A DNA stretch of 32,000 nucleotides from Breznakia sp. PF5-3. Lineage in GTDB: Bacteria > Bacillota_I > Bacilli_A > Erysipelotrichales > Erysipelotrichaceae. The notes under the pieces are model-generated. The model worked only from the letters and a program-made list of their open reading frames with translations, did not search any database and was not told where the DNA came from. The translations under genes and the position numbers were made by a program. Of the stretch, positions 7,216 through 28,659 are shown piece after piece (position 1 is the stretch's first letter; the number at the start of each line of letters is the position of its first letter). The DNA lies in contig NZ_JAQFIQ010000010.1 in NCBI RefSeq assembly GCF_029504745.1, positions 30,001-62,000 of the forward strand, read 5' to 3'.

Positions 7216-9696
<2,481 letters not shown>

Positions 9697-9698
9697 CT

Positions 9699-10937
9699 CT
9701 ATTCTGCTGTTGCTTCTTCTTGTTCATTCAATAACTCTTGTTTTTCAGCAATTTTAAAGAATGGATAATAACACGCTACGGAAATCAATACTAGTACTCC
9801 TGTCCAAACAGCAGTTCTAAGATCTCCACCTGACATCAAGAAACCATTAAAGATTGGTGGCGTACTCCAAGGTATTTCCACAAATGGTCTACCGATGATA
9901 TTTGCTGACATCAACAACCATGTTGACGTAATATTAATTACTGGAACTAAAATAAAGGGAATAATCATAATTGGATTAAACATAATTGGGAATCCATAAA
10001 TGATAGGTTCATTAATATTGAAAGCTCCTGGGAAGATACTAATTTTACCAAGTGTCTTATGAACTTTTGCTTTTGAGAACAAGGCCAAGATTGTTAACCC
10101 TATCGTTGATCCAGTTCCTCCACAACACATGATTGTATACATTCCCCAAGTAACAAACCCTTCTGGTTGTGTTCCTGCTGCTACTGCTGCTGCATTTGCT
10201 TCACCATTCATTGCCATAACAGGAATTAAAAATCCAATAATAACAGCTGGGTTGATTCCACAAATAAATAATAAACACGCTAATAAAGAATATAGCAAAT
10301 ATCCTGGAAGAGTATTTAATCCATTTGCAATTGGTGAGAACAATTCTGTAATAGCTGCATTGATATCAAAATCCAAACCAATTCTAACTAACAACACCAA
10401 AGATACTGAAATTGCCAAAGCGATAATTACTGAGAATGACCCTGCTACCATTGGTGGTACACCATCTGGCATCTTAATCTCAATGTGATATTTCTTACAT
10501 AGATGAATAATATAGACACTAAAGAACCCTACGATCATTGCTGTAAACATTCCTGATGCCCCAAAAGTTGATGTATCAATAACCAAATCTGGTGTAAGCG
10601 TTGCTGCAAAGAATGATGCAACTGAAGTTGTAATCCCAAAAATAGAATCTAACTTATAATGCTTCGCCCCAAAATAACCAATCGCAATCGCTACAACCAA
10701 TCCTGATATATTTGCTGTTACTGTTGCTAGTGAACTAAAGAACGGAGCTGCTGGCTCTACCACTTTCGCAATTCCCTCAAATGGAATATTGGTCATAAAT
10801 GTACCAATTGCCCCAACAATCATCAATGGAACAATTGTCATTACTGAATTACGTAACACAATCATAAATGGTAATTGTGCAAATTTATTCGTAATTGGAA
10901 CTAATTTATTTTGCAAAAACTCTGAAAACTTCTTCAT
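9699..10937 (-). CDS. PTS lactose/cellobiose-family EIIC permease
   Basis: 412-aa polytopic membrane protein with GGAGG RBS. It sits directly upstream of IIB in the same operon. Confidence 0.9.
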   Translation of the reverse strand: MKKFSEFLQNKLVPITNKFAQLPFMIVLRNSVMTIVPLMIVGAIGTFMTNIPFEGIAKVVEPAAPFFSSLATVTANISGLVVAIAIGYFGAKHYKLDSIFGITTSVASFFAATLTPDLVIDTSTFGASGMFTAMIVGFFSVYIIHLCKKYHIEIKMPDGVPPMVAGSFSVIIALAISVSLVLLVRIGLDFDINAAITELFSPIANGLNTLPGYLLYSLLACLLFICGINPAVIIGFLIPVMAMNGEANAAAVAAGTQPEGFVTWGMYTIMCCGGTGSTIGLTILALFSKAKVHKTLGKISIFPGAFNINEPIIYGFPIMFNPIMIIPFILVPVINITSTWLLMSANIIGRPFVEIPWSTPPIFNGFLMSGGDLRTAVWTGVLVLISVACYYPFFKIAEKQELLNEQEEATAE

Positions 10938-11002
10938 TATATTTCCTCCTCTTTTTAAATAGTAATGTTTATAGAATCTGGTAGCTACATTTCTACACCT
11001 TT

Positions 11003-11059
11003 AGTATAAGCAAGATATTATCAATCCTTAAGGTATAAAAAGTCTGTATCACTATAGAC
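11003..11059 (-). promoter_or_regulatory. PTS operon promoter with upstream 18-bp inverted-repeat operator
   Basis: The minus strand reads GTCTATAGTGATACAGAC (11059-11042), 10 nt, TTAAGG (11031-11026), 17 nt, TATACT (11008-11003). The IIA promoter at 13061-13117 has the same architecture. Confidence 0.55.
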
Positions 11060-11060
11060 A

Positions 11061-12995
11061 TCATATATTATTGATTTCAGAAAAAATTGCATGTAATGTT
11101 TCAAAGTCCGTACTTTTTGAAAACCTAGCAAACAATTTAGGATTTAAAATAAACTTTGCTAACGCCTCATTAAAATGTCGTAAGTCACCAGGTGATTTTT
11201 TACTAGGTGACAAGAAAAAGATACATTTCACTTTTTTCTTTCCCCATATCATAGACTTGCTTAACATCAATACCGCAAAAATAGTTTCCTCTGTACACAT
11301 TTTTACCGGATGAGGAATGGCACTATAATTCCCAAATGCAGTAGATGAAAGTTTTTCCCTTTCCAAAATATTTGTTTTTAACTCTGGAGGGATTGTCATC
11401 TTCTCTTTCAATTTATTTATAATAAATTCAATTGCTTCTTCTTCATTATTCATAGGATCTGCATAGAAAAACAAATCCTTTTTCAAATAATCTTCTATAT
11501 GAAACATATCCATCTTATTATTTAAGAAGAAGGCATCCAACTCTTTATCTTTTAAATCACTTAAAAAATCATCGATATAAATAACTGGTAAATTCGTAGC
11601 TATCGGCTTATTAATCGTCGATATAACACAATCAAAATGCTTCATTGAAATCGTACGCAATTCATGGATCTGACAAGTTAAAATATCATTAATATAATCC
11701 CCGTATTGTTGTCTTAGCTTATAAACTAAAATTCTTGAACTACATACACCCAACCCACAAACAACCAAAATATTTTTGGGTTTTTGAATATATTTCAAGC
11801 GATCTAGTGCTAAAGAAAAATACATTGCCAAATAACTTACTTCATTATCATCTAAGTTATAATTATAATTATCTAATATGATTTTTTTAGCAATTAATCC
11901 CATTTCAAAGGAAGTAGCTTGTTGGCTTTTTACTTCATCAACAAAAGGATTGTTTGATTTTATTCCATATTTTAATCTAGTTAACATCGGTTCAAAGTGC
12001 ATTGCTAGATAATTAAACACTTCTACATCCGATTTTAAATCAATTGCTAATTTCGTATTAATTTCATCAAATATTTCACCAAGAATTTCTTCAATATCCT
12101 TCGCTAGTTGATATTGTTGATTCTTACCCGATAGCGAACGTTTCCCCAATAACTGAATTGCAATATAGATAATCTCTTCTTCTGCATCCAAAATAACAAA
12201 AAACTCTTTCAATTGGGTTACGATTGATTTCGCAATACTATATTCTCTCGTATCCATAATAACCTTTACTTCTTCTTCATCAAACGTTATAAAATAACCT
12301 TTTTCCATTCGATGTACAGATATTAGAATATGATTTACCAAATGTTCTCTGCTTGCATCTGACATTTGTACTTGATAAGTTTGTAAAGTGTTTAATATAA
12401 TCGTTTCAGCATGACGATATTCTTCTTCTGTATATTCAAAATCTTTCAACATAGACGTCTTATCTTGATTCATCATATATTTTGAATAGCATAAACGCAA
12501 ACTCATTTCACTTCCTGCTATCCGAATACCTTTTGACGTTTTATTTTCTATCTCCAATCCAAACCTTTGAACTAAATGTCTAACATTCTTTAAATCTGAT
12601 GAGATGGTTGCATCACTTACATAAAGCTGATCAGCGATATCTGAAATCATTATAAATTGGTCATCTAACCCTAACAATATTTGAATTATAGCAATCTCTC
12701 GTGTTTGTTTTTCATCATTATTAATGCGGAATAACACTTTAAATTGATGGTTTTTAAACTCATCAAATTGATGCTCATCATCAATTACTAACAAGTAGCC
12801 ATATCCTTGTTTTGCTTCAATATGAAAACCACTTTTTCTTATTTCTTTTTGGTCTTGTTCATACATATTAATCGTTCTAGATACTGTCTTCGCACTAATC
12901 CCCAGCTGAGTAGCCAATTCATTTGCAGAACTATAGTCTTGATATTCATAAAGCAGCTGAATTATTTCAATAAATCTTGAACTGAATACCATCAT
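11061..12995 (-). CDS. PRD-domain PTS regulator (LicR/MtlR/ManR-type: HTH, two PRDs, EIIB-like and EIIA-like domains)
   Basis: 644 aa. N-terminal HTH (ANELATQLGISAKTVSRTINMY), EIIB-like Cys segment VVCGLGVCSSRIL, C-terminal EIIA-like segment with His (NYSAIPHP). No AAA+/sigma-54 module is visible. The start may be the second ATG at 12992. Confidence 0.8.
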   Translation of the reverse strand: MMVFSSRFIEIIQLLYEYQDYSSANELATQLGISAKTVSRTINMYEQDQKEIRKSGFHIEAKQGYGYLLVIDDEHQFDEFKNHQFKVLFRINNDEKQTREIAIIQILLGLDDQFIMISDIADQLYVSDATISSDLKNVRHLVQRFGLEIENKTSKGIRIAGSEMSLRLCYSKYMMNQDKTSMLKDFEYTEEEYRHAETIILNTLQTYQVQMSDASREHLVNHILISVHRMEKGYFITFDEEEVKVIMDTREYSIAKSIVTQLKEFFVILDAEEEIIYIAIQLLGKRSLSGKNQQYQLAKDIEEILGEIFDEINTKLAIDLKSDVEVFNYLAMHFEPMLTRLKYGIKSNNPFVDEVKSQQATSFEMGLIAKKIILDNYNYNLDDNEVSYLAMYFSLALDRLKYIQKPKNILVVCGLGVCSSRILVYKLRQQYGDYINDILTCQIHELRTISMKHFDCVISTINKPIATNLPVIYIDDFLSDLKDKELDAFFLNNKMDMFHIEDYLKKDLFFYADPMNNEEEAIEFIINKLKEKMTIPPELKTNILEREKLSSTAFGNYSAIPHPVKMCTEETIFAVLMLSKSMIWGKKKVKCIFFLSPSKKSPGDLRHFNEALAKFILNPKLFARFSKSTDFETLHAIFSEINNI

Positions 12996-13060
12996 AATTC
13001 CTCCTCATTTGTATTATCTATATTATATACTGAACTCTAGAGGAAGCGTATCTAAAAAAA

Positions 13061-13117
13061 GTCTTTATCACTATAGACTTTTTCTAACTTAATCATTTTA
13101 TCTATCTGCACTATAAT
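13061..13117 (+). promoter_or_regulatory. EIIA promoter with the same 18-bp inverted-repeat operator
   Basis: GTCTTTATCACTATAGAC (13061-13078), 10 nt, TTAATC (13089-13094), 17 nt, TATAAT (13112-13117). It lies in the divergent region between the regulator and IIA genes. Confidence 0.55.
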
Positions 13118-13167
13118 TTGAATATACAAAGGAAGACTATATTGTTATCAGAAAGCGAGGAACCAAC

Positions 13168-13482
13168 ATGGAAAACTTAGAACAAATTTGTTTTGAAATA
13201 ATATCAAATGTAGGAAGTGCAAGAAGTATATATATCAATGCCATTCAAGAAGCAAAGCAAGGGGATATGGAGAAAGCTAGGGAGATGATTGAAGAAGGGA
13301 ACAGTGTATTTGTTAAAGGTCATCATGCACATGCAAAACTAGTCCAAAAAGAAGCGGCAGGAGAAAGTACGATTATATCTTTGCTATTGGTTCATGCTGA
13401 AGATCAATTGATGAGTGCGGAGTCTTTTAAAATATTAGCAGTTGAATTCATTGATGTTTATAAAGCAATTGCCTTGAAATAA
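13168..13482 (+). CDS. PTS lactose/cellobiose-family EIIA component
   Basis: 104-aa helical protein with the conserved His region LLLVHAEDQLMSAE typical of this EIIA family. Confidence 0.88.
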   Translation: MENLEQICFEIISNVGSARSIYINAIQEAKQGDMEKAREMIEEGNSVFVKGHHAHAKLVQKEAAGESTIISLLLVHAEDQLMSAESFKILAVEFIDVYKAIALK

Positions 13483-13678: not shown

Positions 13679-14332
13679 CTATTTTAAATATGGCACTAGT
13701 TCCTCATATTCAACAATATGATCTAATTTTGATAATGTCTTTTTCTGTGATTCATATACAGCTAATACTTCGCGTTTTTGATTTGCTTCTTGTTTATTTA
13801 ACTTTTTTTGTTTGAAAGCAATATCATCCTTTTTAAAGTATTCACCAAAATAATATAATGTATCTTCTTTATGTAACTCTTTTACTACGTTTGTTACGAT
13901 TTCATTCGTTTTTTTATGTTGGATGTGCCCATATTCACCTTGTGGATTATGCGTTACAATTCTATCCCAATCGCCAGTGATAATAATTTTTTCTACTTCT
14001 TTAGAGATCACTTCCTGTTCCTTTGACCAATTGCTTCGCTCTCCTTTTACTTTATCTGGATAGGATAAGATAACTCCTGTGTTTTTTGTTTTATCCAACA
14101 TGTTTTGAAATTCTGCTTCTCGAAGCTCATTATCACCATTGGTAAGACAGACAATATAATACTCATGGTTGATAAGTTCATTACCACCAAAGAGAACTTC
14201 ATCATCGGGGTGTGCCACAATCATGAGCCTTGTTTTATTTTGATTACTACTGGCTTCATGTTTCATCACTTCGCATCCAAATAGGATAGCTACAAACAAT
14301 AGACTACTTAAAAGCGCTATTGATTTACGCAT
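13679..14332 (-). CDS. PIG-L/LmbE-family de-N-acetylase, predicted exported lipoprotein
   Basis: Metal-site motifs VAHPDDEVLFGG and GEYGHIQHKK (HxxH). The signal peptide MRKSIALLSSLLFVAILFGC carries a lipobox. The ORF track starts at GTG 14344. I prefer the ATG at 14332 because it gives a canonical signal peptide and the same 8-nt ATGnnTAA overlap seen at the two upstream junctions. Confidence 0.8.
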   Translation of the reverse strand: MRKSIALLSSLLFVAILFGCEVMKHEASSNQNKTRLMIVAHPDDEVLFGGNELINHEYYIVCLTNGDNELREAEFQNMLDKTKNTGVILSYPDKVKGERSNWSKEQEVISKEVEKIIITGDWDRIVTHNPQGEYGHIQHKKTNEIVTNVVKELHKEDTLYYFGEYFKKDDIAFKQKKLNKQEANQKREVLAVYESQKKTLSKLDHIVEYEELVPYLK

Positions 14333-15260
14333 GATTTTGATCACTTTCTTTAATTATATAAATAGGACGCTTCTTATTTTCTAAATAATCTTTTGATAAA
14401 TATTGTCCTAGAATGGATATAAAAATCATTTGCAAACTACTCAATACTAGAATAATCTCTAATAAGATAAGAAAATCTTTTATACCATTTTGCATAAGCA
14501 ATTGGGCAATCATAACAACACCCAAAAAGCCAGCAATGAAAAGTAAGAGGATTCCAATAATACCTGCAAGTTTTAAAGGCTTTGTAGAGAAGGAAATAAT
14601 TCCTTCAAAAGCATACGCAAACAGAGATTTTAAATTCCATTTTGTTTCACCAGCAACACGATCTGCATTGTTGAAGGTTACCCACTTTGTATCAAAACCA
14701 ACAAAAGAGAAAATACCTTTCATATAGCGATTATATTCTTTCATTTCCAAAATAGCATCTACTACTTGCCGTGTCATCATTCTAAAATCTCCACTTCCAT
14801 CATTCATATCCATATTGGAAAGACTGCGAATAAGCTTATAAAAAGTTCTTGATAGAAAGTTACGCAATGCTCCTTCGCCTCTACGATCCAATCTTTTTCC
14901 TGCACAACAATCGTACTTCTCTACTTTCAAAGCATGATACATATCTGCTAATAAGGTCGGTGGATGTTGAAGGTCAGCATCCATGATGACACAATAGTCG
15001 CCTGTTACTTTTTGTAATCCAGCAAACATCGCTGCTTCTTTACCAAAGTTTCTTGAAAAAGAATGATAATGACAATCCTTATCCTTCATTGATAATGACT
15101 TTAATATTTGAATTGTGCAATCACTACTTCCATCATCAATAAAAAGCAATTCATAACTCACATTATCAATTTTATTTAATTCTTTTACCGTCTCTTGATA
15201 GAACATTGGTAACGATTCTTCCTCATTATAACAAGGTATAATAACACTGATTTTATCCAT
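14325..15260 (-). CDS. GT2 polyprenyl-phosphate glycosyltransferase (GtrB/CsbB/GtlA-like)
   Basis: 311 aa. Motifs VIIPCYNEE, IDDGSSD and DADLQHPP, plus two C-terminal transmembrane helices. This is the typical architecture of bactoprenol glycosyltransferases. Confidence 0.88.
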   Translation of the reverse strand: MDKISVIIPCYNEEESLPMFYQETVKELNKIDNVSYELLFIDDGSSDCTIQILKSLSMKDKDCHYHSFSRNFGKEAAMFAGLQKVTGDYCVIMDADLQHPPTLLADMYHALKVEKYDCCAGKRLDRRGEGALRNFLSRTFYKLIRSLSNMDMNDGSGDFRMMTRQVVDAILEMKEYNRYMKGIFSFVGFDTKWVTFNNADRVAGETKWNLKSLFAYAFEGIISFSTKPLKLAGIIGILLLFIAGFLGVVMIAQLLMQNGIKDFLILLEIILVLSSLQMIFISILGQYLSKDYLENKKRPIYIIKESDQNHA

Positions 15261-15648
15261 ATGTATTTTCTCCTTTCAAAAATATTTTATTACGACAAAT
15301 CATATAATTACCAAGAATAGTTATTACACTAATACTACATTTTGCAATAATTGGGTTTGCATAGAATAACTGAATAAAGATAAACAACAAGATATTCTCA
15401 ATAAGCAATGTAAGTAATCGTAAAGATGCAAAAGATAAAAATTCTTTTACTACTTTTTCAGATGAACCAAACACCCACAAACGATTGGTGAAGTATGCAG
15501 TTATCACGGCAACCATCCAAGCAACTGTATTCGCCACTAAATAATTTACATGTATTTTATACAACAGATAAAACACAAGATAATTAACTAGGGTTGTTAG
15601 AACGCCATTGATTCCATACTTTAATAATTCTTTTACTTTTTTACTCAT
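15253..15648 (-). CDS. GtrA-family small membrane protein (candidate lipid-linked sugar flippase)
   Basis: 131 aa with four hydrophobic helices. It has the GtrA-like size and context between the YfhO and GT2 genes, with 8-nt overlaps on both sides. Confidence 0.8.
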   Translation of the reverse strand: MSKKVKELLKYGINGVLTTLVNYLVFYLLYKIHVNYLVANTVAWMVAVITAYFTNRLWVFGSSEKVVKEFLSFASLRLLTLLIENILLFIFIQLFYANPIIAKCSISVITILGNYMICRNKIFLKGENTYG

Positions 15649-18100
15649 GTTGATACCTTCTTTCTAAGATATAGATTATGATAAATCCACATAATCCAAT
15701 AATTGATATAAATGCCCCTAATGTTTTTCCTGGTGGAACAAACGTTATTTTAATCTCATGGGTTCCTTTCTCTAATGCAAACCCTACAAATGCTTTGTTG
15801 ACCGTTTCAACAGGCTTTTTTTGACCATCTACATATACTTCATATCCTTTTTGAATAGGGAGTGATGTTACAAAGTAACAATCCTTATCAACTCTAATAT
15901 CGCCTTCTAAAACATGATTAGTCGAAGTCGTTTGCAAAGGTGTAATCACTTGTTTTTCTGGGTGGTAAGGCAATGTATAGGTCTGTATATTTTGTAATTC
16001 ATACGTCCCTTTCCCTAACGTTATATTTAAACTATCCAATTCCTCTTCTGATGATAATACATATGTAAAGTTTGTATTACCATTTGGATAAGCTGCCTTT
16101 TTACTAGATAACTTATTATTTACACCATTGATCGATATAGATAAGTCCTTACTTTTAATATTACTTATATTCTTCACATCAAACGTAATGATTAATATTT
16201 GCTCATGTAAATCGTGATTGATACCAAGTTTTAATTTACTTTTCTTTTTACTATCAATATAGATAGTCCCATCTTCTCTGAAATATTCTAAACAATCACT
16301 TTTCTCTAAAACATTGGTGGTAAGATTAGCTTGCTTAACACCAAATTCATACTTACTATCTCCTCCCTTAACAATTGTCCGATTGTACAATACATCTAAG
16401 GTATAAGGTAGTGAAAGCTTATCAAATGCTTCTTCACTATACAGTGCATCCGTAGCATATGCGATTGGCAATACATTTTTATTTTCTAGAAGTTTAACTC
16501 CATCATTTTCATATACAACTTCATATCCCTTTGGAATATACTTCTTATTTGTATAAAGATAACGAACTCCCATCTTCTCTTGAAACACAATGTTTTGTTG
16601 CAAGGATGTTATGACTCGATTTTTTGTGGGAATTGCATTCTTTGCAATATCATAAAAGAATGTATTATAAGCTTGATTGTTCATTGATGTATACATCGTA
16701 GTTCGTTTCATACCCGACAATGCAAGATTTACATTATTGAGTTGATAGCGAACATCATCAAATCGATAATTTTGATTTAGATGTAGATCTTTTAACTTTT
16801 CATCCGCTTTTATCATCATGACTTCATCATACTTTTGCTTTGAAACATAATTTTCTGAATGATTGTTCCAATAACTATTCACGAAGGGAACAAGTAAAAT
16901 CAACAAGTATACCATTCTTTTCTTTGTCTTCATATACAAGATGATTGTGATATAAATAAGCACAAGTTCGACTATCCATACCACCAGAAAACGGAAATTA
17001 AGCAAAGGAAGAAGCGCGATTCCAAGAGCTGGATACATCCATGTTTTGCCATCCCTCTTTATATGTTGCAGCACATATGCTGTAACATATAAAACAAGGG
17101 GAATGAAAGGAATAAACACTTTTTCTCTTATATATAACGTTCCATTTAATACATAACAGATAAGGCCAAACAACATACATATAAGTAAGCTTATGGATAA
17201 ACCTCTTATCTTTTTATCACGTAACCCAAAACTTAAAGCAATCCATGATATCAGACTCAAACCCATTCCATATTTATAGTAAAGAAAATTTTTAAGTTGG
17301 ATATTGGGAAGCAAGAGTCGCATATCAAATCCATTACTTCCTCCTCGTGCTCCTGCCAATAAAACATAGGCCGTTGGCAACAATAAAATTCCACATATCA
17401 TAAAGGCTACAAGGAAGATAAATACAAAGTTTAAGATTAATTTTTTTCCTTGCTTTGATAAAAGTTTTATATGTCGTAGTTTCATGTTATAAAAGATATA
17501 AATCATGAGTACAAAACTACAACTAACACTGAAGAAAAAGCTATGTAAAATAATTAAGACAATACTAATTATGAAAGGAAGTTTTGATTTTCCATTGAAT
17601 ATTCGATCAATAAAAATAAATGATAAAATAAGATATGGCATATAATTCACAAACATAATTTGTCTATGTAAATGAAAGAAGAAAGATGAAAAAGCAAACA
17701 ACATCGTACATAGAAACGCTATCACTGTATCGATATCTTTCTGCTTTAACCAATAATACAAAAGATTTAGACTAACAATAAAAGAAATCATCATATATAC
17801 AATTATTACATCCTTCATAGCTACCATTGGTAATAGCAATGAAATTAAGACATCTGGACGAAATAAACCATAATATGAAAATGCATATACATTTTGTCCT
17901 CCACCAAGTGCATCCACAAAGTTAGGAAATAAACCTTGTTCATACATCGTTGTACGAAGTGTATCAGCTATTTGCACATGTTGTGATAACCAATCGGTAT
18001 TGGAACCAAACATATAACCATTAGGGACATATAATATAATCATCAAGATTGCAATTCCACTAATGAATAAATATGGATATATATTTTTCTTATCTTTCAT
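15641..18100 (-). CDS. YfhO-family polytopic membrane glycosyltransferase (GT-C-like)
   Basis: 819 aa. The first ~400 aa are multi-spanning, followed by a ~380-aa soluble (extracytoplasmic) region and a final C-terminal TM (AFISIIGLCGFIIIYIL). GGAGGAG RBS. Confidence 0.8.
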   Translation of the reverse strand: MKDKKNIYPYLFISGIAILMIILYVPNGYMFGSNTDWLSQHVQIADTLRTTMYEQGLFPNFVDALGGGQNVYAFSYYGLFRPDVLISLLLPMVAMKDVIIVYMMISFIVSLNLLYYWLKQKDIDTVIAFLCTMLFAFSSFFFHLHRQIMFVNYMPYLILSFIFIDRIFNGKSKLPFIISIVLIILHSFFFSVSCSFVLMIYIFYNMKLRHIKLLSKQGKKLILNFVFIFLVAFMICGILLLPTAYVLLAGARGGSNGFDMRLLLPNIQLKNFLYYKYGMGLSLISWIALSFGLRDKKIRGLSISLLICMLFGLICYVLNGTLYIREKVFIPFIPLVLYVTAYVLQHIKRDGKTWMYPALGIALLPLLNFRFLVVWIVELVLIYITIILYMKTKKRMVYLLILLVPFVNSYWNNHSENYVSKQKYDEVMMIKADEKLKDLHLNQNYRFDDVRYQLNNVNLALSGMKRTTMYTSMNNQAYNTFFYDIAKNAIPTKNRVITSLQQNIVFQEKMGVRYLYTNKKYIPKGYEVVYENDGVKLLENKNVLPIAYATDALYSEEAFDKLSLPYTLDVLYNRTIVKGGDSKYEFGVKQANLTTNVLEKSDCLEYFREDGTIYIDSKKKSKLKLGINHDLHEQILIITFDVKNISNIKSKDLSISINGVNNKLSSKKAAYPNGNTNFTYVLSSEEELDSLNITLGKGTYELQNIQTYTLPYHPEKQVITPLQTTSTNHVLEGDIRVDKDCYFVTSLPIQKGYEVYVDGQKKPVETVNKAFVGFALEKGTHEIKITFVPPGKTLGAFISIIGLCGFIIIYILERRYQHE

Positions 18101-18131
18101 CGTTCTCCTCCGTACGATATTATTTTGTCAT

Positions 18132-18219
18132 AGATTTCTTAAGTCCCGCATAAAGGAAACCTTAAGAAATCTTAAGTTTTTCTTAATATTATCCATAACC
18201 CCTTATCTTATTGTATAAT
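18132..18219. promoter_or_regulatory. Divergent control region with a CTTAAG repeat array and the TCS promoter
   Basis: 12-nt perfect inverted repeat AGATTTCTTAAG (18132-18143) / CTTAAGAAATCT (18161-18172). Three tandem boxes follow: CTTAAG 18161, CTTAAG 18171 and CTTAAT 18182, spaced 10-11 bp. An extended -10 TGTATAAT lies at 18212-18219 with no good -35. Confidence 0.5.
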
Positions 18220-18252
18220 TTATGTAGATTTAAATAGAGATGAGAGGTATCT

Positions 18253-18951
18253 GTGGAAAAAACAAAAATCTTAATTGCCGATGATAATAGCGAAATAAGA
18301 GAAGTCATTTCTGTTCTTCTTAGTAGTGAAGGCTATGAAGTAATCGAAGCTAAAAACGGAGAAGAAGCAATCGAAAAAGCGAATGAAGATATTGATCTAT
18401 TCATTTTGGATATTATGATGCCAAAAGTAAATGGATATCAAGCATGTATTGGAATTCGTAAAAAAAGTCATGCTCCAGTTTTATTTCTCAGTGCCAAAGG
18501 TGCTGAAAGCGATAAAACATTGGGATTCTCTTCTGGTGCAGATGACTACCTGACAAAACCATTCTCTTACAATGAGCTTACTGCTAGAGTAAAAGCAATG
18601 CTCCGTCGCTATCATATATATAAGGGAAAAGAGGCGTTACAAGAAGAAAAGAGTATTCTAAAATTTACTTCTCTAACCATCGATGAAATAAATGAGAAAG
18701 TTTTTATTGATAACACAGAAATTGAACTAACTGATATCGAATATCAAATTCTTCATTTATTGGCAACTCATCGCCAACAAATCTTTTCATTAGAAAAACT
18801 ATATGAAACCATTTGGAATGAAGATTACTACTATACTGCAAATAATACTGTAATGGTCCATATGCGTAACTTACGTAAAAAAATTGAAAAGGATCCTCAA
18901 AATCCTAAGATTATAAAAACTATATGGGGAAAGGGGTATCGCTTTGAATAA
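18253..18951 (+). CDS. OmpR/PhoB-family response regulator
   Basis: 232 aa with a GTG start after a GAGAGG RBS. Receiver motifs ADDN, FILDIMMP (phospho-Asp), SAKG and LTKPF. C-terminal winged helix ending IWGKGYRF. Confidence 0.92.
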   Translation: MEKTKILIADDNSEIREVISVLLSSEGYEVIEAKNGEEAIEKANEDIDLFILDIMMPKVNGYQACIGIRKKSHAPVLFLSAKGAESDKTLGFSSGADDYLTKPFSYNELTARVKAMLRRYHIYKGKEALQEEKSILKFTSLTIDEINEKVFIDNTEIELTDIEYQILHLLATHRQQIFSLEKLYETIWNEDYYYTANNTVMVHMRNLRKKIEKDPQNPKIIKTIWGKGYRFE

Positions 18952-20788
18952 TAAAAAAAGAGGTCGCACCTTCCTAAAAATATACTTAGCTTTCCTTACT
19001 AGCATAATTAGTTTTTTTACTATTTATGCTTTTCGCTTTGATGTTTTACAATTGAGTGAAAGTGATGAGAATTCTTCAATAGTAGATGAAGTTAAAATAA
19101 AAAGACTTAATCAAAAGCTTTATGAGATTAATCTCAATGTAGATAACAACGATAAAATACTCAGTATTTTACAAAGTGAATTAGAAAATTACAATTACCA
19201 AGTATTAATGAGAAGTGATAATGATGAAATAGCGATTCCAATAACAAAATTTGAATCTATGATTTATAACAATAAATTATCTCAAGGACAATTTGAACTA
19301 TTACATTTTAAAAATGGAGATGCTTATATTGAAATATATCCTACTTTTAAATCTTATTTTTCAATTTATGTAATTGTTGATTTCATTATAAGCATTCTTA
19401 TTTTTATCATATGCTATTTTTTATTTAACTACATTGATAAAAAACAACTCATCAACAAAGCAACCCAAAAATTACAAAATACAAGATTTGGAAAACGCTT
19501 ATCAGTAGAACTTATTGGAGTGAATTTACTTGCCGTAGCAATTGCCATTTCCGCATATTTATTTATGTATAACAATCGTTATGCTTACTTCTCTTTTATA
19601 AGAGATAATGTCGCTGAAAATACTAATATGAAGATTGCAGATGAATTACAAGATATGTTTAAAGATGTTAATATCAACGAAAAAACTTACAATAAAATCA
19701 ATAATTCTTTAAACAATAGTTTTGATTCACATACAACTGTAACTCTTATGGATGAAAAAAAACCAGAAATGTACCTATCTACATTTTATTCATATGAATT
19801 ATATTCAAGTAATAATTTATATGATGTATCAGCAATTTCTTCTGCTAACAGTTCCACTCACACCATAAAATTTAAAAACAAAAAGATCTTTGCCTTCATT
19901 TCAACCTCGCCTGTAGCACCTTATGCACCTTCTTATTTATATACAATTATTTTTATTGCTATCTCACTTTATGCAATAACCCTAATTTGGTTTATTCAAA
20001 ACAAAGTGAAAATGATTTTAAAACTACAAGAGGATGTCGATATTCTTGCTGCTGGAAATTTAACACATGAAATCAGCATTTTAGGTGGAGATGAAATTGG
20101 TGAATTAGGAAAAAATCTAAATGAAATGCGAATTTCATTCTACGAAACAATGGAAAGCGAAAATCGAATGCAAGATGCAAATAAGAAGTTAATCACTTCC
20201 ATGTCACACGATTTAAGAACACCCCTTACATCGCTTATGGGATACTTAGACATTCTTCGCTTACAAAAAGGAGACCCTAAGCAAAGCCAAGTGTATTTAG
20301 ATAAAGCTGCTGAAAAAGTAGAACAAATTCGTTCCCTATCGGATCAAATGTTTGAATACTTCTTAGTATATGGACAAGACGAAAATGCTAATTTAACATT
20401 ACAAAGCTGTGAAGAATGGATAAACTATATCGAAGAGAGTGTGAACCTATTAAAGTATCAAGACTATAAAATTAAAATGGAACTAGAAAGAAGTGGATTA
20501 CTTCGCTTAAATATGACTTTGATGAAAAGAGCAATGGATAATATCTTCTCTAACTTACAAAAATATGCAGATATCACTTCTCCAATTACCATCATCAGTG
20601 AAATAAAAAAAGGCCATTACTGCCTTTTGGTCGAAAACTCTAAACGAAAAGATATCGATGATATCGAAAGCAACCACATTGGATTAAAAAGTGTTGATCG
20701 CATCATTAAACTGCATAATGGTACCATTAAAATAAAGAATACGGAACAACACTTTCTAATTCTTATTGAATTACCAATGATCGTATAA
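18944..20788 (+). CDS. Sensor histidine kinase (4 TM, two large outside loops, HAMP, HisKA, atypical HATPase_c)
   Basis: 614 aa. TTG start overlapping the RR stop by 8 nt. H-box SMSHDLRTPLTS (His codon at 20207-20209). N-box MDNIFSNLQKYA. The G1/G2 positions read LLVENSKRK and NHIGLKSV. Confidence 0.85.
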   Translation: MNNKKRGRTFLKIYLAFLTSIISFFTIYAFRFDVLQLSESDENSSIVDEVKIKRLNQKLYEINLNVDNNDKILSILQSELENYNYQVLMRSDNDEIAIPITKFESMIYNNKLSQGQFELLHFKNGDAYIEIYPTFKSYFSIYVIVDFIISILIFIICYFLFNYIDKKQLINKATQKLQNTRFGKRLSVELIGVNLLAVAIAISAYLFMYNNRYAYFSFIRDNVAENTNMKIADELQDMFKDVNINEKTYNKINNSLNNSFDSHTTVTLMDEKKPEMYLSTFYSYELYSSNNLYDVSAISSANSSTHTIKFKNKKIFAFISTSPVAPYAPSYLYTIIFIAISLYAITLIWFIQNKVKMILKLQEDVDILAAGNLTHEISILGGDEIGELGKNLNEMRISFYETMESENRMQDANKKLITSMSHDLRTPLTSLMGYLDILRLQKGDPKQSQVYLDKAAEKVEQIRSLSDQMFEYFLVYGQDENANLTLQSCEEWINYIEESVNLLKYQDYKIKMELERSGLLRLNMTLMKRAMDNIFSNLQKYADITSPITIISEIKKGHYCLLVENSKRKDIDDIESNHIGLKSVDRIIKLHNGTIKIKNTEQHFLILIELPMIV

Positions 20789-20811
20789 GAAACATCCTAA
20801 AGATGTTTCTT
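20787..20811. terminator. Bidirectional hairpin between the convergent kinase and lipoprotein genes
   Basis: 10-bp stem AAGAAACATC (20787-20796) / GATGTTTCTT (20802-20811) with a 5-nt loop. It overlaps both stop codons. Confidence 0.6.
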
Positions 20812-21208
20812 ATTTTGTATAGGTATTTATTATAGAATACAACTCCTCACTACTTTGTAACTGATACCAGTATAATTGATCATCATCCTTTTTCTTCACC
20901 TTAATTTGATCTCCACTTTCCCATAAGATGACATGAATTTCTTCATTATTATATTCAATAAATAACTCATATACAGGTTCTAATGTAGTAGCACGATACC
21001 CTTTTGGATTTTTCTTTGGATGATGTTGATCTTCATCATAAGTAGCAGCATCAATAATTTGAAAAACCTTTTGTGCATCATCTTCCTTCAATGAAATGTT
21101 TTTTTGACTTTCATTTAATTTTAAAACAATTGATGCTTTTTCTCCTTGGGTAAAACTACATCCAGCAAATAAAAATAATAGCGATAATAACATATATTTT
21201 CTTTTCAT
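20810..21208 (-). CDS. Small lipoprotein of unknown function
   Basis: 132 aa. Signal peptide with lipobox LLFLFAGCSF. AGGAGG RBS. No motif I can assign. Confidence 0.7.
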   Translation of the reverse strand: MKRKYMLLSLLFLFAGCSFTQGEKASIVLKLNESQKNISLKEDDAQKVFQIIDAATYDEDQHHPKKNPKGYRATTLEPVYELFIEYNNEEIHVILWESGDQIKVKKKDDDQLYWYQLQSSEELYSIINTYTK

Positions 21209-21440: not shown

Positions 21441-21488
21441 ATGGATATTAACAAACATTATAAGACAGTAGAAAGGCTGGATCACTAA
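21441..21488 (+). other. 15-codon mini-ORF (MDINKHYKTVERLDH), stop overlapping the permease ATG (TAATG)
   Basis: An AAAGGAG RBS (21429-21435) lies 5 nt before the ATG at 21441. The TAA at 21486-21488 shares its last A with the permease ATG at 21488. It occupies the position normally held by the ABC ATPase gene. Confidence 0.3.
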
Positions 21489-24400
21489 TGAGCAAAGCAG
21501 CTTTTCGTAAAAGTTCTTTACGAGTCGTTAAAACAACCTTTACACGGTTTATTTCGATTGTTTTAATATCCTTTTTAGGTGCAGGAGTTTTTGCGGGTCT
21601 TAGTGCAACATCTCCAAATATGAAACTAACTGGTGACGCATACTATGATAAATATAATGTAGCTGATGCTCAGATTCTATCTACATATGGATTTGATGAC
21701 AGCGATATAAATGCTATTAAAGACATACATGGTATACGTGAAGTTTTGGCAACATATTCAATTGATTCCACAGGGAGTGTGGAAAGTAAAGACTATACAT
21801 TTAAAATCAGTGGATTTCCTGATCGTAAAGATGCACAGATCAATCAGGTTAAATTAATTGATGGGCAAATGCCAAAAGCCCAAAATGAAGCAATTATTAT
21901 CCAACCTTCTATAGGATTAAAAAACATAAAAATAGGGAGTAATATAACATTAGATAAATCTTCAAATACCGCTTTCTCATCAACCCTTGATAGAAATGAT
22001 TTTGAAATTGTTGGAATTGCAGAGTCTCCCTACTATTTATCATTCATGCAAGGAAGTACAACTGTTGGGAGTGGATCTATCGACTATGTCATTTATGTAC
22101 CTAAAGATAATTTTATAATTGATAGTTACACTGAACTGTTGGTAACATTTGATAACACTAAGAACTTGAATACATTTGAAGATGAGTATTTTAAAGCCTG
22201 TGAAAAGCCATTGGATAAATTAAGTATAATGGCTAAAGAACGCCAGGATTTACGATATACAAAACTAAAAAAGGATTTAAAAGACGGTCATAAAGAATTA
22301 TCAGTAGTGAGAAAAGATACAGAAAAGCAATTGGATGATGCTGAACTTCAACTTGAAGCAGCAAAAACTCAGATTGAAACTTCAAAAGTTTTGTATCAAA
22401 ATGGTGTAAGTGAATATAATACAAAAAAAGGATTAGCTGAAAGTGAACTTACAATTGCTGAAAATAAATTATCTGCTGCAGAAAAGAACATTATGCAAGG
22501 AGAGCAAGAACTTTCTAAAAAGCAAAGTGAACTACAAAACAATAAACTACTATTAGCGGAAGGTCGAAGAAAATTAGATACTGCATGGACTGACTACAAT
22601 CAGCAATATGCAGCTTACTTAGCTATAAAGGATTTTTTATGGAGCACAAATCCCGAACAAGCTGCACTTCTTGAACAACAATTAAATGCTTATAGGGTAC
22701 AACTTGATCAAGAAGAACAAGCTTATACTAATAATTCAGATAAGTTAAAAGCTGCACAAATACTTCTAAATCAAAAGCAAGGTGAAATAAACCAGGCAAA
22801 AATAGATTATCAAAATAGCATAATTACATATAATCAAAATAAAGAACTTGTAGATGCTGAATTGTACAATGCTGAGATTAGTTTAAAAACGGCTGAAAAT
22901 CAAATCCAAACTGCTGAAAATGAACTGAAGATAAAGTGGGCAGAGTTTGATGAACAGAAAAAGGCTACAATAACAAAGCTAGAAGATAGTGAAGTATTAC
23001 TAAATGAACAAGAAGATATCGTTTCAAAGATGGGAACTCCTAAATGGTTTGTTTTGGATCGCAACATGAATGAGTCTTTTATTAACTTTTATGATACAAC
23101 CAAAAAAATGCGAGATCTTGCTACAATATTTCCTGTAATTTTCTTTCTTGTTGCAGCACTTGTGTGTCTTACAACAATGACACGAATGGTGGATGAAGAC
23201 AGAATTTTAATTGGTACATTTAAAGCTTTGGGATATTCAAAACGAACCATTGCAATGCGATATTTGCTCTATGCTATTATTGCCAGTTTCATTGGGAGTT
23301 TACTTGGTGTGCTTGTAGGATTCTGGTTACTACCACATATTATTTGGAATGCTTATGCAATTATTTTTGCCTTTCCTACTCTACATACAAGATTTTTCTT
23401 AGATACTGCTACACTATCAGTATTAGCCATCGTAATAACAATTGGCTTAACTACCGGTTTTTCAATCAAACGTTCCTTAGATGAAGTTCCATCAGAGTTA
23501 ATGAGACCTAAAGCGCCAAAGAGTGGAAAGCGAGTTTTTATAGAAAACATTAAATTAATTTGGAATCGACTGAGCTTTACTAGAAAAGTAACGATTCGTA
23601 ATTTAGGACTTAATAAAAAGCGATTAGTCATGGCTTTACTTGGAATCTTAGGATGTACTGCATTGGTAGTAACTGCTTTTGGAATTAAAAATTCTATCCA
23701 GTCAATATCCAGCAAACAATTTCAAACTATTTTAAAATATGATATAAGTGTAGGATATAGTGATAAGCCATCAAATGAATTAGCGACATTCATGAGTAAC
23801 GAATCATACTTTAATGAAGCTGTAGAAGCCTATCGTGGAGCAGCAATAGCTAGAGATAAAAAGAACTCAAATACTACTGAAAGTATTAGTGTTGTAGCAC
23901 CCAAAGACAGCAAGGAATTTAATAATGTTGTTAAGTTCTACGATCCTAGTAATCACAAAAGTATCCAATTTACTACCAATAGTGTTGTAATTACTGAGAA
24001 GTTAGCAATTAATTTGAATCTTGATATTGGTGATAAAATTGAAATAAAATACTTGAATGATGATACATATCATAGTCTGGAAATAACAGATATATCAGAA
24101 AACTATACATTTAATTACATATATATTGGAGATGATGTATATATGGATATCTTTAATGAGCCTGCTTCTTATAACTACTACTTCTCTATCCTAAATGACA
24201 ATATAGATAAGCGCATTGTGGAAGCAAAACTACATGAAATCAACGGAGTGAGTGTTATCTCATTTACAAAAGATTTGATGGGGAATATTGAAAAATCTAT
24301 CAAAAGTATCGATACAATCATCTGGGTATTGATCATCGCTGCTGGTCTTTTGGCATTTGTAGTTATTTATAATCTGACAAACATTAACATTGGAGAGCGA

Positions 24401-24709
24401 CAAAGAGAGTTAGCTACGCTAAAAGTATTAGGTTTCTATGATAATGAAACATATAATTATATCTTCAGAGAAACAATTGCTATTTCAATAATTGCATGTA
24501 TCCTTGGATTATTTGGAGGTTCTTTCTTGTATAAAGCAGTTGTTGTAACCGTAGAGCCTAGTAGCATTTTCTTAACCCGCTCTCTATCCTGGGAAAGCTA
24601 TGCACTTGCAGTAATACTTACGATGTTTTTTACACTCATCGTAAATATGTTTTTAATACCAAAGATCAAACACATTGATATGTTAGAGTCTTTAAAATCT
24701 GTAGACTAA
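21488..24709 (+). CDS. Double-FtsX-domain ABC-type permease (MacB/COG0577 class) with a giant coiled-coil extracytoplasmic insert
   Basis: 1073 aa. TM1 at aa 21-40 and a large outside domain at aa 41-543, including heptad-rich aa ~245-512. First FtsX module contains RILIGTFKALGYSKR, with a second outside domain after it. Second FtsX module contains ERQRELATLKVLGFYDNE. Confidence 0.85.
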   Translation: MSKAAFRKSSLRVVKTTFTRFISIVLISFLGAGVFAGLSATSPNMKLTGDAYYDKYNVADAQILSTYGFDDSDINAIKDIHGIREVLATYSIDSTGSVESKDYTFKISGFPDRKDAQINQVKLIDGQMPKAQNEAIIIQPSIGLKNIKIGSNITLDKSSNTAFSSTLDRNDFEIVGIAESPYYLSFMQGSTTVGSGSIDYVIYVPKDNFIIDSYTELLVTFDNTKNLNTFEDEYFKACEKPLDKLSIMAKERQDLRYTKLKKDLKDGHKELSVVRKDTEKQLDDAELQLEAAKTQIETSKVLYQNGVSEYNTKKGLAESELTIAENKLSAAEKNIMQGEQELSKKQSELQNNKLLLAEGRRKLDTAWTDYNQQYAAYLAIKDFLWSTNPEQAALLEQQLNAYRVQLDQEEQAYTNNSDKLKAAQILLNQKQGEINQAKIDYQNSIITYNQNKELVDAELYNAEISLKTAENQIQTAENELKIKWAEFDEQKKATITKLEDSEVLLNEQEDIVSKMGTPKWFVLDRNMNESFINFYDTTKKMRDLATIFPVIFFLVAALVCLTTMTRMVDEDRILIGTFKALGYSKRTIAMRYLLYAIIASFIGSLLGVLVGFWLLPHIIWNAYAIIFAFPTLHTRFFLDTATLSVLAIVITIGLTTGFSIKRSLDEVPSELMRPKAPKSGKRVFIENIKLIWNRLSFTRKVTIRNLGLNKKRLVMALLGILGCTALVVTAFGIKNSIQSISSKQFQTILKYDISVGYSDKPSNELATFMSNESYFNEAVEAYRGAAIARDKKNSNTTESISVVAPKDSKEFNNVVKFYDPSNHKSIQFTTNSVVITEKLAINLNLDIGDKIEIKYLNDDTYHSLEITDISENYTFNYIYIGDDVYMDIFNEPASYNYYFSILNDNIDKRIVEAKLHEINGVSVISFTKDLMGNIEKSIKSIDTIIWVLIIAAGLLAFVVIYNLTNINIGERQRELATLKVLGFYDNETYNYIFRETIAISIIACILGLFGGSFLYKAVVVTVEPSSIFLTRSLSWESYALAVILTMFFTLIVNMFLIPKIKHIDMLESLKSVD

Positions 24710-26181: not shown

Positions 26182-26889
26182 ATGAAATTATTACAATTAC
26201 AAAACTATGATGAATTATCAAGAATTGGTGCTGAAATTATCATTGATGAGATTAAGCATAATATGAATGCAAACATTTGCTTAGCCACTGGTGGCTCACC
26301 AAAAAAGCTATATGAACAAATGGTTCAACAAATTAATGAAGAACGTATCGATATCTCAAATGTCACTTTTACAAAACTCGATGAATGGTATGATGTAGAT
26401 CCAAAAGAATCATTTACTTGTGAAACTTTCATTCAAGAAAATATCTTAGATAAGTTATATATGCAACCAAAGCAATTCATTTCCTTTGTTTCAAATGCTT
26501 TGGATATCGATTTAGAAGTACAAAGAATACAAAAATTAATTGATGAAAATCCTATTGATATCATGATTTTAGGTTTAGGAATGAATGGTCATCTAGGTTT
26601 AAATGAACCAAATGATGAACTAACGCTACCTTGCCATTATGCCGCACTTGATACAAAAACCAAAACGCATGATATGGCGGATGGAAGGAATCTTGAAGGT
26701 GGCTTAACCATTGGCATGAAAGGTATCTTTGATGCCAAGAAAATCCTCTTTTTAGTATCTGGTGATAAAAAAGAAGATGCATATCATGGTTTTATGAAAA
26801 AAACAATATCAACAAACCTACCTGCAAGTTTTTTATGGTTACACAAAAATTGCATTACGCTTATTGATAAAGAACAGTTTACTAATTAA
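26182..26889 (+). CDS. NagB-family glucosamine-6-phosphate deaminase/isomerase paralog
   Basis: 235 aa. Motifs ICLATGGSPKKLY and MILGLGMNGHLGLNEP (closer to canonical NagB than the 7216-7926 paralog). An extended -10 TGCTATAAT lies upstream at about 26148-26156. Confidence 0.8.
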   Translation: MKLLQLQNYDELSRIGAEIIIDEIKHNMNANICLATGGSPKKLYEQMVQQINEERIDISNVTFTKLDEWYDVDPKESFTCETFIQENILDKLYMQPKQFISFVSNALDIDLEVQRIQKLIDENPIDIMILGLGMNGHLGLNEPNDELTLPCHYAALDTKTKTHDMADGRNLEGGLTIGMKGIFDAKKILFLVSGDKKEDAYHGFMKKTISTNLPASFLWLHKNCITLIDKEQFTN

Positions 26890-28251: not shown

Positions 28252-28659
28252 ATGAAATATTATACAATTAAAACAAAAGAAAATACTCAGATGATAATAA
28301 AGGAAGTAAATGCTGAAATTGCTAGTTATGGATTTTCGTTAAGTGAAGAAGACTATCAATTTCTTTTAGCAAAACAAAAAGAACTCTATACACACTATAA
28401 CCTAATTGATTTAGATACAACAATCATTAAGGTTATCGCAATGACTGTAAATAAATCTCCTTATATACGACAAAGCAATTATGTAGACTTAATCGTTCAC
28501 TTTCTAGATTTATTCTATGCATGTCGAAAACAAATTGGAACTCTTCATTACGATGATGAAATCATTTATACACTTTATCAAATATATTTATTACACTATG
28601 GAGAAATATCCACAAAATTACTTTATGATACGCTAAAAATACTACAGGAGAAATTATGA
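28252..28659 (+). CDS. Hypothetical 135-aa soluble helical protein
   Basis: Good AAGGAG RBS. No TM segments and no motif I can assign. The stop overlaps the next start (ATGA), which implies translational coupling. Confidence 0.7.
   Translation: MKYYTIKTKENTQMIIKEVNAEIASYGFSLSEEDYQFLLAKQKELYTHYNLIDLDTTIIKVIAMTVNKSPYIRQSNYVDLIVHFLDLFYACRKQIGTLHYDDEIIYTLYQIYLLHYGEISTKLLYDTLKILQEKL

Follow-up and report, generated by a model that had tools for sequence, protein, structure and literature searches.

A locus in a Breznakia species (Erysipelotrichaceae) raises the question of what a predicted exported deacetylase of the PIG-L/LmbE family does at the end of an operon for envelope glycosylation. The DNA analysed, called the window here, is a stretch of 32 kb in which four minus-strand genes, yfhO, gtrA, GT2 and PIG-L, form an operon that is divergent from a response regulator (RR) gene and a histidine kinase (HK) gene, together a two-component system (TCS). 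An earlier note, made from the sequence alone, had named these as YfhO, GtrA, GT2 and PIG-L proteins beside an OmpR-type RR and a HisKA kinase, and all the open reading frames (ORFs) were found where it placed them. The profile and structure checks which it had called for were run, and Pfam for all proteins and an AlphaFold2 (AF2) model with Foldseek for the deacetylase agree with the assignments. The motifs AHPDDE, GHIQH, DADLQHPP and LFGC and the two C-terminal transmembrane (TM) segments of the GT2 were likewise verified in the sequence.

The answer proposed here is that the genes form a module under sensor control by which a polymer of the cell envelope would receive an amino sugar, and taken as a whole this mechanism has about an even chance of being right. 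The GT2 enzyme would load undecaprenyl phosphate (Und-P) with an N-acetyl-hexosamine (HexNAc) at the cytoplasmic face, GtrA would bring the lipid-linked sugar to the outer face, and the GT-C enzyme YfhO would pass it to an extracytoplasmic acceptor, most likely wall or lipoteichoic acid. The membrane-tethered PIG-L lipoprotein would strip the N-acetyl group outside, leaving a protonatable free amine (a hexosamine, HexN), and the VanR-like RR, driven by a kinase with two outside loops, would switch on the two divergent promoters by way of TTAAG-type direct repeats. As the earlier note suggested, the sugar may be N-acetylglucosamine (GlcNAc), the acceptor may be a teichoic acid, and the altered surface charge may serve resistance to cationic peptides.

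The coupled operon and its deacetylase

All six module proteins exceed the Pfam gathering cut-offs, and their features are collected in Table 1. An 8-nt start/stop overlap, NTGNNNTAA, is common to four junctions, namely the three of the minus-strand operon and that between RR and HK, the individual overlaps being ATGAGTAA (YfhO stop and GtrA), ATGGATAA and ATGCGTAA (the other two minus-strand junctions) and TTGAATAA (RR stop and HK). Gene content supports the assignment of the module to the three-component Und-P-sugar glycosylation sets, each component having the expected features. GtrA matches PF04138 over its full length (profile positions 1-117 of 117), the GT2 has its C-terminal TM segments at residues 234-252 and 263-281, and YfhO is predicted to have about 10 hydrophobic segments together with a large outside domain in its C-terminal part and one last TM segment. 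The same three families occur in one operon in the CsbB/GtlA-GtcA/GtrA-YfhO/GtlB route of Bacillus subtilis, Listeria monocytogenes and Staphylococcus aureus, with a like predicted topology and the same presumed succession of Und-P-sugar synthesis, flipping and outside transfer. The window operon adds a coupled PIG-L deacetylase and a dedicated TCS, neither of which, going by the papers found, is known to belong to the characterised three-component systems. The sugar should be N-acetylated because a de-N-acetylase requires such a sugar, and a HexNAc donor is consistent also with the closest characterised relative of the GT2 being PgfS of an N-acetylgalactosamine (GalNAc) pathway.

The deacetylase matches PF02585 with 47.8 bits (cut-off 28.2). 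Its likely start is the ATG at 14332 (M5 of the listed ORF), which gives 217 aa, since the 8-nt overlap is then identical at all four junctions; the Shine-Dalgarno-like GAAAGTGA precedes it, and the signal peptide MRKSIALLSSLLFVAILFGC is kept whole. The NCBI gene model of the protein speaks against export, as it has 195 aa from M27 and thus lacks the signal peptide. Of 120 homologs, 115 show a hydrophobic N-terminal stretch in front of AHPDDE, and a lipobox is present in 25. The long form is favoured because of the shared overlap, the hydrophobic N-termini of the homologs and the signal peptides and surface modules of the family. The lipoprotein signal peptide read in the earlier note is accordingly present in the sequence and backed by homologs, although absent from the NCBI model, and the deacetylase is very probably a lipoprotein (MRKSIALLSSLLFVAILFG-C) at the outer face of the membrane.

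The residues H45, D47, D48, H140 and H143 are invariant across the family alignment of 28 sequences, together with a set that is the subfamily's own (C66, T68, G70, R75, E78, F79, D97, W106, Y197, S199 and Q200). The deacetylase sequence gave no significant match when searched against the PDB (best E 0.17). The AF2 model built from the 28 homologs has a predicted local distance difference test (pLDDT) score of 90.2, and its 22 significant Foldseek matches all belong to the LmbE superfamily (E 1e-7 to 5e-6, TM-score 0.53-0.60), with MshB, diacetylchitobiose deacetylases, Dbv21, LnmX and GalB as neighbours. The model thus confirms an LmbE/PIG-L fold with intact metal-binding and catalytic residues, and de-N-acetylase activity is predicted. 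Fold, catalytic and metal residues are shared with the cytoplasmic enzymes MshB, BshB, diacetylchitobiose deacetylase, Dbv21/Orf2* and eukaryotic PIG-L, from which the window subfamily differs in its predicted export, its frequent fusion to surface modules and the lack of significant sequence similarity (E >= 0.17). For both the deacetylase and the kinase, NCBI has proteins of 100% identity from Breznakia sp. OttesenSCG-928-G09 and PF5-3.

Table 1. Features of the glycosylation module and of the divergent two-component system in the window
Feature	Position	Strand	Basis or remark
YfhO-family GT-C glycosyltransferase, 819 aa, operon gene 1	15641..18100	-	Pfam PF09586, 182.6 bits
GtrA-family small membrane protein, 131 aa, presumed Und-P-sugar flippase	15253..15648	-	Pfam PF04138, 80.3 bits
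GT2 polyprenyl-phosphate glycosyltransferase, 311 aa	14325..15260	-	Pfam PF00535, 108 bits
DADLQHPP motif of GT2	14958-14981	-	GT2 residue 94
PIG-L/LmbE-family de-N-acetylase, predicted exported; 221 aa from GTG 14344	13679..14344	-	PF02585
Lipoprotein signal peptide, lipobox LFGC, Cys24	14273..14344	-	read from sequence
AHPDDE metal-binding and catalytic-base motif, residue 44	14198..14215	-	aligns with MshB AHPDDE
GHIQH (HxxH) catalytic and metal-binding motif, residue 139	13916..13930	-	aligns with MshB motif
Divergent promoter region, yfhO to RR gene, 152 bp	18101..18252	.	TTAAG-type boxes
Box CTTAAGAAATC facing yfhO	18133..18143	-	about -35 of candidate TAATAT promoter, judged by eye
Boxes CCTTAAGAAATC, CTTAAG, CTTAAT, spacing 10-11 bp	18160..18187	+	upstream of TTGTATAAT
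OmpR/PhoB-family response regulator, 232 aa, VanR-like	18253..18951	+	Pfam Response_reg and Trans_reg_C
Sensor histidine kinase, 614 aa	18944..20788	+	Pfam HAMP, HisKA, ATPase; 4 TM segments
Terminator-like hairpin ending the RR-HK unit	20785..20813	+	12-pair stem, then T run

Linkage of the deacetylase, YfhO and the two-component system

Gene neighbourhoods were surveyed with one genome per species for 269 relatives of the deacetylase, and the best 80 loci were examined. The recurrence of PIG-L with YfhO for which the earlier note had asked was found, with a YfhO gene at most 400 bp away in 48 of the 80 loci and within 6 kb in 55 (7 beyond the 48). The 48 close pairs comprise 18 divergent ones and 30 with both genes on the same strand, and in 27 of the latter the genes overlap or lie no more than 30 bp apart. 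The adjacent pairs span two classes of Firmicutes; Lachnospiraceae and Ruminococcus have the bare pair, and in Erysipelotrichales (Holdemanella, Thomasclavelia, Massilicoli, Absicoccus and Breznakia) GT2, GtrA, YfhO, PIG-L, RR and HK recur rearranged, PIG-L being gene 1 of the RR-HK transcription unit in Holdemanella. Judged by its sequences, this family of predicted exported deacetylases is widespread and uncharacterised and adjoins YfhO-type transferases in many gut bacteria.

The TCS was approached from the kinase as well. Full-length kinase homologs were found in Erysipelotrichales only, and the RR-HK pair adjoins YfhO, GtrA and GT2 in all of six independent kinase-centred contexts. Three observations weigh against the proposed mechanism here: PIG-L lies within 10 kb in one of these six contexts (L085) and is missing in the other five; in a neighbour-joining tree the Breznakia YfhOs have as their sister a YfhO without PIG-L (L086); and in about 25 of the 80 loci PIG-L is an orphan among housekeeping genes with no YfhO nearby. 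The first two make the deacetylase appear dispensable for the module. The conserved core is the TCS with three-component glycosylation, PIG-L is an accessory which tracks YfhO more widely in Firmicutes, and the window is a place where the association of PIG-L with YfhO and that of the TCS with YfhO-GtrA-GT2 coincide. The claim of the earlier note that the operon is tied to the adjacent TCS therefore holds for YfhO, GtrA and GT2 and fails for PIG-L as a fixed part.

Two genes that might have stood in for PIG-L were rejected. A 214-aa unannotated gene after GT2 in the C. innocuum locus L082, considered as a cryptic PIG-L, had an hhalign probability of 2% and no Pfam match, and a 624-aa gene in the same place in L086 had no Pfam match, signal peptide or TM segment and is probably unrelated. 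A linkage of a TCS outside Erysipelotrichales was seen in a Ruminococcus metagenome-assembled genome (L029, 1064-7514), where RR, HK, PIG-L and YfhO form one co-directional operon with three TTAAGAAA boxes upstream; its kinase is a different and longer one (46 bits against the window HK).

Four CTTAAGAA-type boxes (at most 1 mismatch) lie inside 52 bp of the divergent region, and 38 occur in the whole window. The candidate promoter of the RR gene, TTGTATAAT, has its -10 element TATAAT at 18214-18219; scans of this AT-rich DNA for sigma-70 promoters and terminators found 52 against 51 expected and were uninformative. In 14 loci from diverse genera, among them a Ruminococcus operon of RR, HK, PIG-L and YfhO, TTAAG/CTTAA was observed 50 times ahead of the RR gene against 3.7 expected, an enrichment somewhat inflated by the AT-rich intergenic DNA (26% versus 35% GC), which tempers the case for regulation. 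From these repeats we infer, with good support, that the module is controlled by the RR. The sequence CTTAAGTTTTTCTTAAT (18171-18187) is the only match in the window to YTTAAK-N5-YTTAAK, with 0.61 expected by chance; this is the type of the PmrA box, which controls naxD. As a conserved operator the strict form was rejected, since only 4 of its 9 matches in the loci lie in module promoter regions, and the looser TTAAG repeats are relied on in its place. A variant of the TTAAG operator was noticed in the C. innocuum group, where the RR-upstream unit ATATATAAAGAAATCTTAAAAAATC is present in a single copy in L082 (9177-9306) and in L088 (9217-9357) as two perfect 25-bp tandem copies.

The best NCBIfam match of the RR is VanR-F/M (242.8 bits, cut-off 460), VanR-ABDEGLN also being among the best, and consistent with this the box CCTTAAGAAATC agrees with the VanR site (T/C)CGTANGAAA(T/A)T at 10 of 12 positions. 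Apart from these likenesses the system differs from VanRS. Both proteins are below the VanR and VanS cut-offs (62 bits for the HK against the VanS model, cut-off 400), the window has no van genes, and the duplicated 4-TM sensor region, with segments at residues 9-27, 143-161, 190-208 and 333-351 and two outside loops of about 115-125 aa, is unlike VanS.

The earlier note had likened the TCS and a neighbouring FtsX permease to the wiring of GraRS-VraFG for cationic-peptide resistance. In full, this would be a unit of the GraRS-VraFG or BceRS-AB type that senses and detoxifies cationic peptides and induces the operon. An FtsX/MacB_PCD permease gene does lie 700 bp downstream of the kinase, and three Holdemanella loci have FtsX homologs a few kb from the module. 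The permease is however not adjoined by an ABC ATPase, its neighbours being a 132-aa opposite-strand lipoprotein and a DUF2130 gene, and it is parted from the HK by the terminator-like hairpin and the opposite-strand gene. The large outside loops of the kinase are unlike the loop-less BceS and GraS and do not make an intramembrane sensor, an FtsX gene is present in none of the six kinase-centred contexts, and the region upstream of FtsX is without TTAAG repeats. Such a unit is thus very improbable, and the likeness drawn in the earlier note is unsupported.

The permease (21488-24709, plus strand) is itself unusually long at 1073 aa; it is built of two FtsX/MacB_PCD halves with a coiled-coil-like insert of about 250 residues. 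A short upstream ORF of 15 codons (21442-21489, plus strand), MDINKHYKTVERLDH, precedes it, with AAGGAG as a strong ribosome-binding site and a stop that overlaps the FtsX gene start (TAATG); its role may be that of a leader peptide or of a device for coupling. The 132-aa predicted lipoprotein (20810-21208, minus strand, lipobox FAGC) is convergent with the kinase gene, with which it has a bidirectional hairpin in common, and matched no Pfam or NCBIfam model, and the 88 fetched loci contained no homolog. Elsewhere in the window there is a cellobiose-type phosphotransferase system cluster (7216-13482) with IIC, IIB, a GH1 6-phospho-beta-glucosidase, a NagB/6-phosphogluconolactonase-like protein, a LicR/MtlR-type PRD regulator and a divergent IIA, a second gene of the Glucosamine_iso family (26182-26889), and overlapping genes for DUF6323 and DUF6179 proteins (28252-30011, plus strand). 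A supposed truncated methionyl-tRNA synthetase gene at the right edge was rejected, as the gene merely continues past the end of the window.

The order of deacetylation and the acceptor

At which stage the deacetylase would act was addressed through the architecture of its relatives. An exhaustive profile search gave 274 representatives (clusters at 50% identity, E <= 1e-30), and architectures were counted among 144 top matches absent from the first homolog search, 76 of which have at least 290 aa and a C-terminal PIG-L domain. The N-terminal parts of these 76 contain Big_2 domains (43), Choline_bind_3/cell-wall-binding repeats (13), ricin lectin (7), CWB2 (3) and DUF6056 (3), and single fusions were found to a PBP-type transglycosylase and to a GT2 (P0246). 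The PIG-L proteins of L072, L075 and L079 consist of a signal peptide, choline/cell-wall-binding repeats and the PIG-L domain. These wall-binding, lectin and Ig-like fusions suggest that the family acts on surface glycopolymers, and deacetylation after transfer is thereby favoured. The fusions to DUF6056, GT2 and transglycosylase hint, in the manner of Rosetta stones, at a physical link of the deacetylase to enzymes that build glycans. DUF6056, fused to PIG-L in P0283, P0322 and one more protein, is a polytopic membrane domain with an N-terminal HDDWAWGS motif, and we suspect that it is GT-C-like.

The same enzymes could work in another order, the flipped Und-P-HexNAc being deacetylated at the outer leaflet and HexN then being transferred by YfhO. 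LmbE/PIG-L enzymes typically use small or lipid-linked terminal GlcNAc (GlcNAc-phosphatidylinositol, GlcNAc-inositol, chitobiose), NaxD deacetylates Und-P-linked GalNAc ahead of lipid A transfer, and the lipid-stage order would mirror ArnD, NaxD, LgmC and eukaryotic PIG-L, all of which act on lipid-linked sugars. A linker of only about 14 residues between Cys24 and the catalytic domain in the AF2 model would hold the deacetylase at the membrane, and the tight translational coupling of PIG-L and YfhO would fit an enzyme that makes a donor and a transferase specific for it. No characterised lipid-carrier amino-sugar pathway is known to deacylate after transfer instead of before it, which also goes against the order we propose. 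The known lipid-stage deacylases, however, work at the cytoplasmic face and not outside, and in many members of the family, which are secreted, wall-binding repeats, lectins or Ig-like spacers take the place of a membrane anchor, as expected for polymer substrates. The nesting of a PIG-L-less YfhO beside the PIG-L-linked Breznakia YfhOs further argues against a re-specialised donor specificity. Deacetylation at the lipid stage is on balance unlikely, though conceivable for the short-tethered lipoprotein form, and deacetylation after transfer is retained.

For the acceptor, four of the six contexts, those of C. innocuum and three relatives, have TagF-type Glyphos_transf genes immediately before the orthologous YfhO-RR-HK-GtrA-GT2 module, one of the four (L083) also carrying TarI/J-like and TagG/H-like genes, and in L072 PIG-L stands between a GT2-TagF fusion and a PMT_2-type GT-C. 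On this evidence from gene neighbourhoods, a teichoic acid is the favoured acceptor. A chemical precedent is the lipoteichoic acid of C. difficile, with free glucosamine (GlcN) at about 15% of one residue, and the slpA locus of this species holds an uncharacterised LmbE-like gene.

Two facts tell against a teichoic acid and for protein glycosylation as an alternative: no teichoic acid synthesis genes were found in this window, and YfhO enzymes also glycosylate proteins, PgtC2 and PgfM1 acting on Ser/Thr-rich intrinsically disordered regions. By analogy to PgfS/PgfM1 or GtrB/PgtC2 in streptococci, the deacetylase would then trim O-HexNAc on Ser/Thr-rich extracytoplasmic regions. The Pgf models are indeed the best NCBIfam match of the GT2 (PgfS, 298.6 bits, followed by ArnC with 152.5 bits) and the only ones of YfhO (PgfM2 and PgfM1, weak and C-terminal, 52 bits). 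All of these matches are far under their cut-offs, which are 500 for PgfS, 529 for ArnC and 1500 for the YfhO models, and the operon is without an epimerase or a Ser/Thr-rich adhesin gene. The TagF-type polymerases that abut the orthologous modules and the wall-binding repeats of the family point to polymers, and a protein acceptor is improbable.

It is also quite unlikely that the deacetylase has another GlcNAc as its target, in peptidoglycan or a polymer linkage unit as for PgdA and PplD, either independently of YfhO or preparing an acceptor site for it. PplD and PgdA demonstrate that extracellular deacetylation of wall GlcNAc exists, and the orphan PIG-L genes, the PBP-type transglycosylase fusion and the retention of the module without PIG-L in the C. 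innocuum group are all in line with such a role. The coupling of PIG-L to YfhO in 27 genomes, the adjacency in 48 of 80 loci and the fusions to GT2 and DUF6056 would then be left unexplained. PplD had been brought forward in the earlier note as a precedent within PIG-L, which did not stand up, as its paper gives a D-H-H zinc triad and makes no mention of PIG-L or LmbE. Kinship was rejected also because no CE4 structure is among the Foldseek matches and the window protein has HxDD and HxxH motifs. By this structural comparison PplD is a functional analogue and not a relative. The likeness is that PplD, too, is a zinc de-N-acetylase anchored in the membrane and active outside the cytoplasm, which gives a wall polysaccharide positive charge and so shields the cell from cationic proteins of the host; PplD differs in its CE4-like triad and in its substrate, the GlcNAc of the linkage unit, and YfhO is unmentioned in its paper. 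Decoration of a teichoic acid with a sugar deacetylated after its transfer is the preferred reading.

Relation to known amino-sugar pathways and significance

The closest comparators are pathways of lipid A modification, namely Arn (ArnC/ArnD/ArnE-F/ArnT) with 4-amino-4-deoxyarabinose (Ara4N), FlmF2/NaxD/FlmK of Francisella and Acinetobacter with galactosamine (GalN), and LgmA-D of Bordetella with GlcN. Shared with them, in the proposed scheme, are a GT2 acting on Und-P, a deacylation that unmasks an amine, transfer by a GT-C enzyme to an anionic polymer and an OmpR-family TCS, and the window has in addition the match of its GT2 to ArnC and a PmrA-type box in its promoter. The lipid A pathways differ in that the sugar is deacylated at the cytoplasmic face ahead of flipping, the GT-C is of ArnT type (PMT_2/GT83) and not YfhO, and the acceptor is Gram-negative lipid A. 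Their deacylases belong to other families, ArnD being CE4-like and NaxD and LgmC YdjC-like.

The literature searched, most subscription journals being outside its scope, yielded no account of a YfhO pathway that has a PIG-L/LmbE partner, so that this absence is not proof. The statement in the earlier note that no characterised YfhO pathway is known to have a dedicated exported deacetylase under TCS control met with no counterexample there. Tentatively, and with somewhat more doubt than confidence, we propose that the exported LmbE/PIG-L enzyme and YfhO form a widespread, unrecognised Gram-positive counterpart of the Ara4N, GalN and GlcN modifications of lipid A. It would place free-amine hexosamines on the teichoic acids or wall glycopolymers of gut Firmicutes, switched in Erysipelotrichales by a VanR/PmrA-like TCS in response to an envelope signal. 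The deacetylase family could also explain the GlcN residues of clostridial lipoteichoic acid.

The negative charge of the Gram-positive surface is known to be reduced chiefly through D-alanylation of teichoic acids, lipid lysinylation, and deacetylation either of peptidoglycan or of linkage units. If true, the proposal would add a further mechanism of charge tuning, a functional twin of the polymyxin-resistance pathways of Gram-negatives, and would give a role to an uncharacterised family of exported enzymes with 274 clusters and to a TCS with a recognisable operator. It can be tested directly in culturable strains, carriers of the full module including Holdemanella biformis DSM 3989, Thomasclavelia saccharogumia DSM 17460 and Breznakia pachnodae DSM 16784. 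It would bear on the resistance of abundant gut Firmicutes, among them Holdemanella, Thomasclavelia, Ruminococcus and Lachnospiraceae, to host cationic peptides, lysozyme and bacteriocins, and on how the immune system recognises them.

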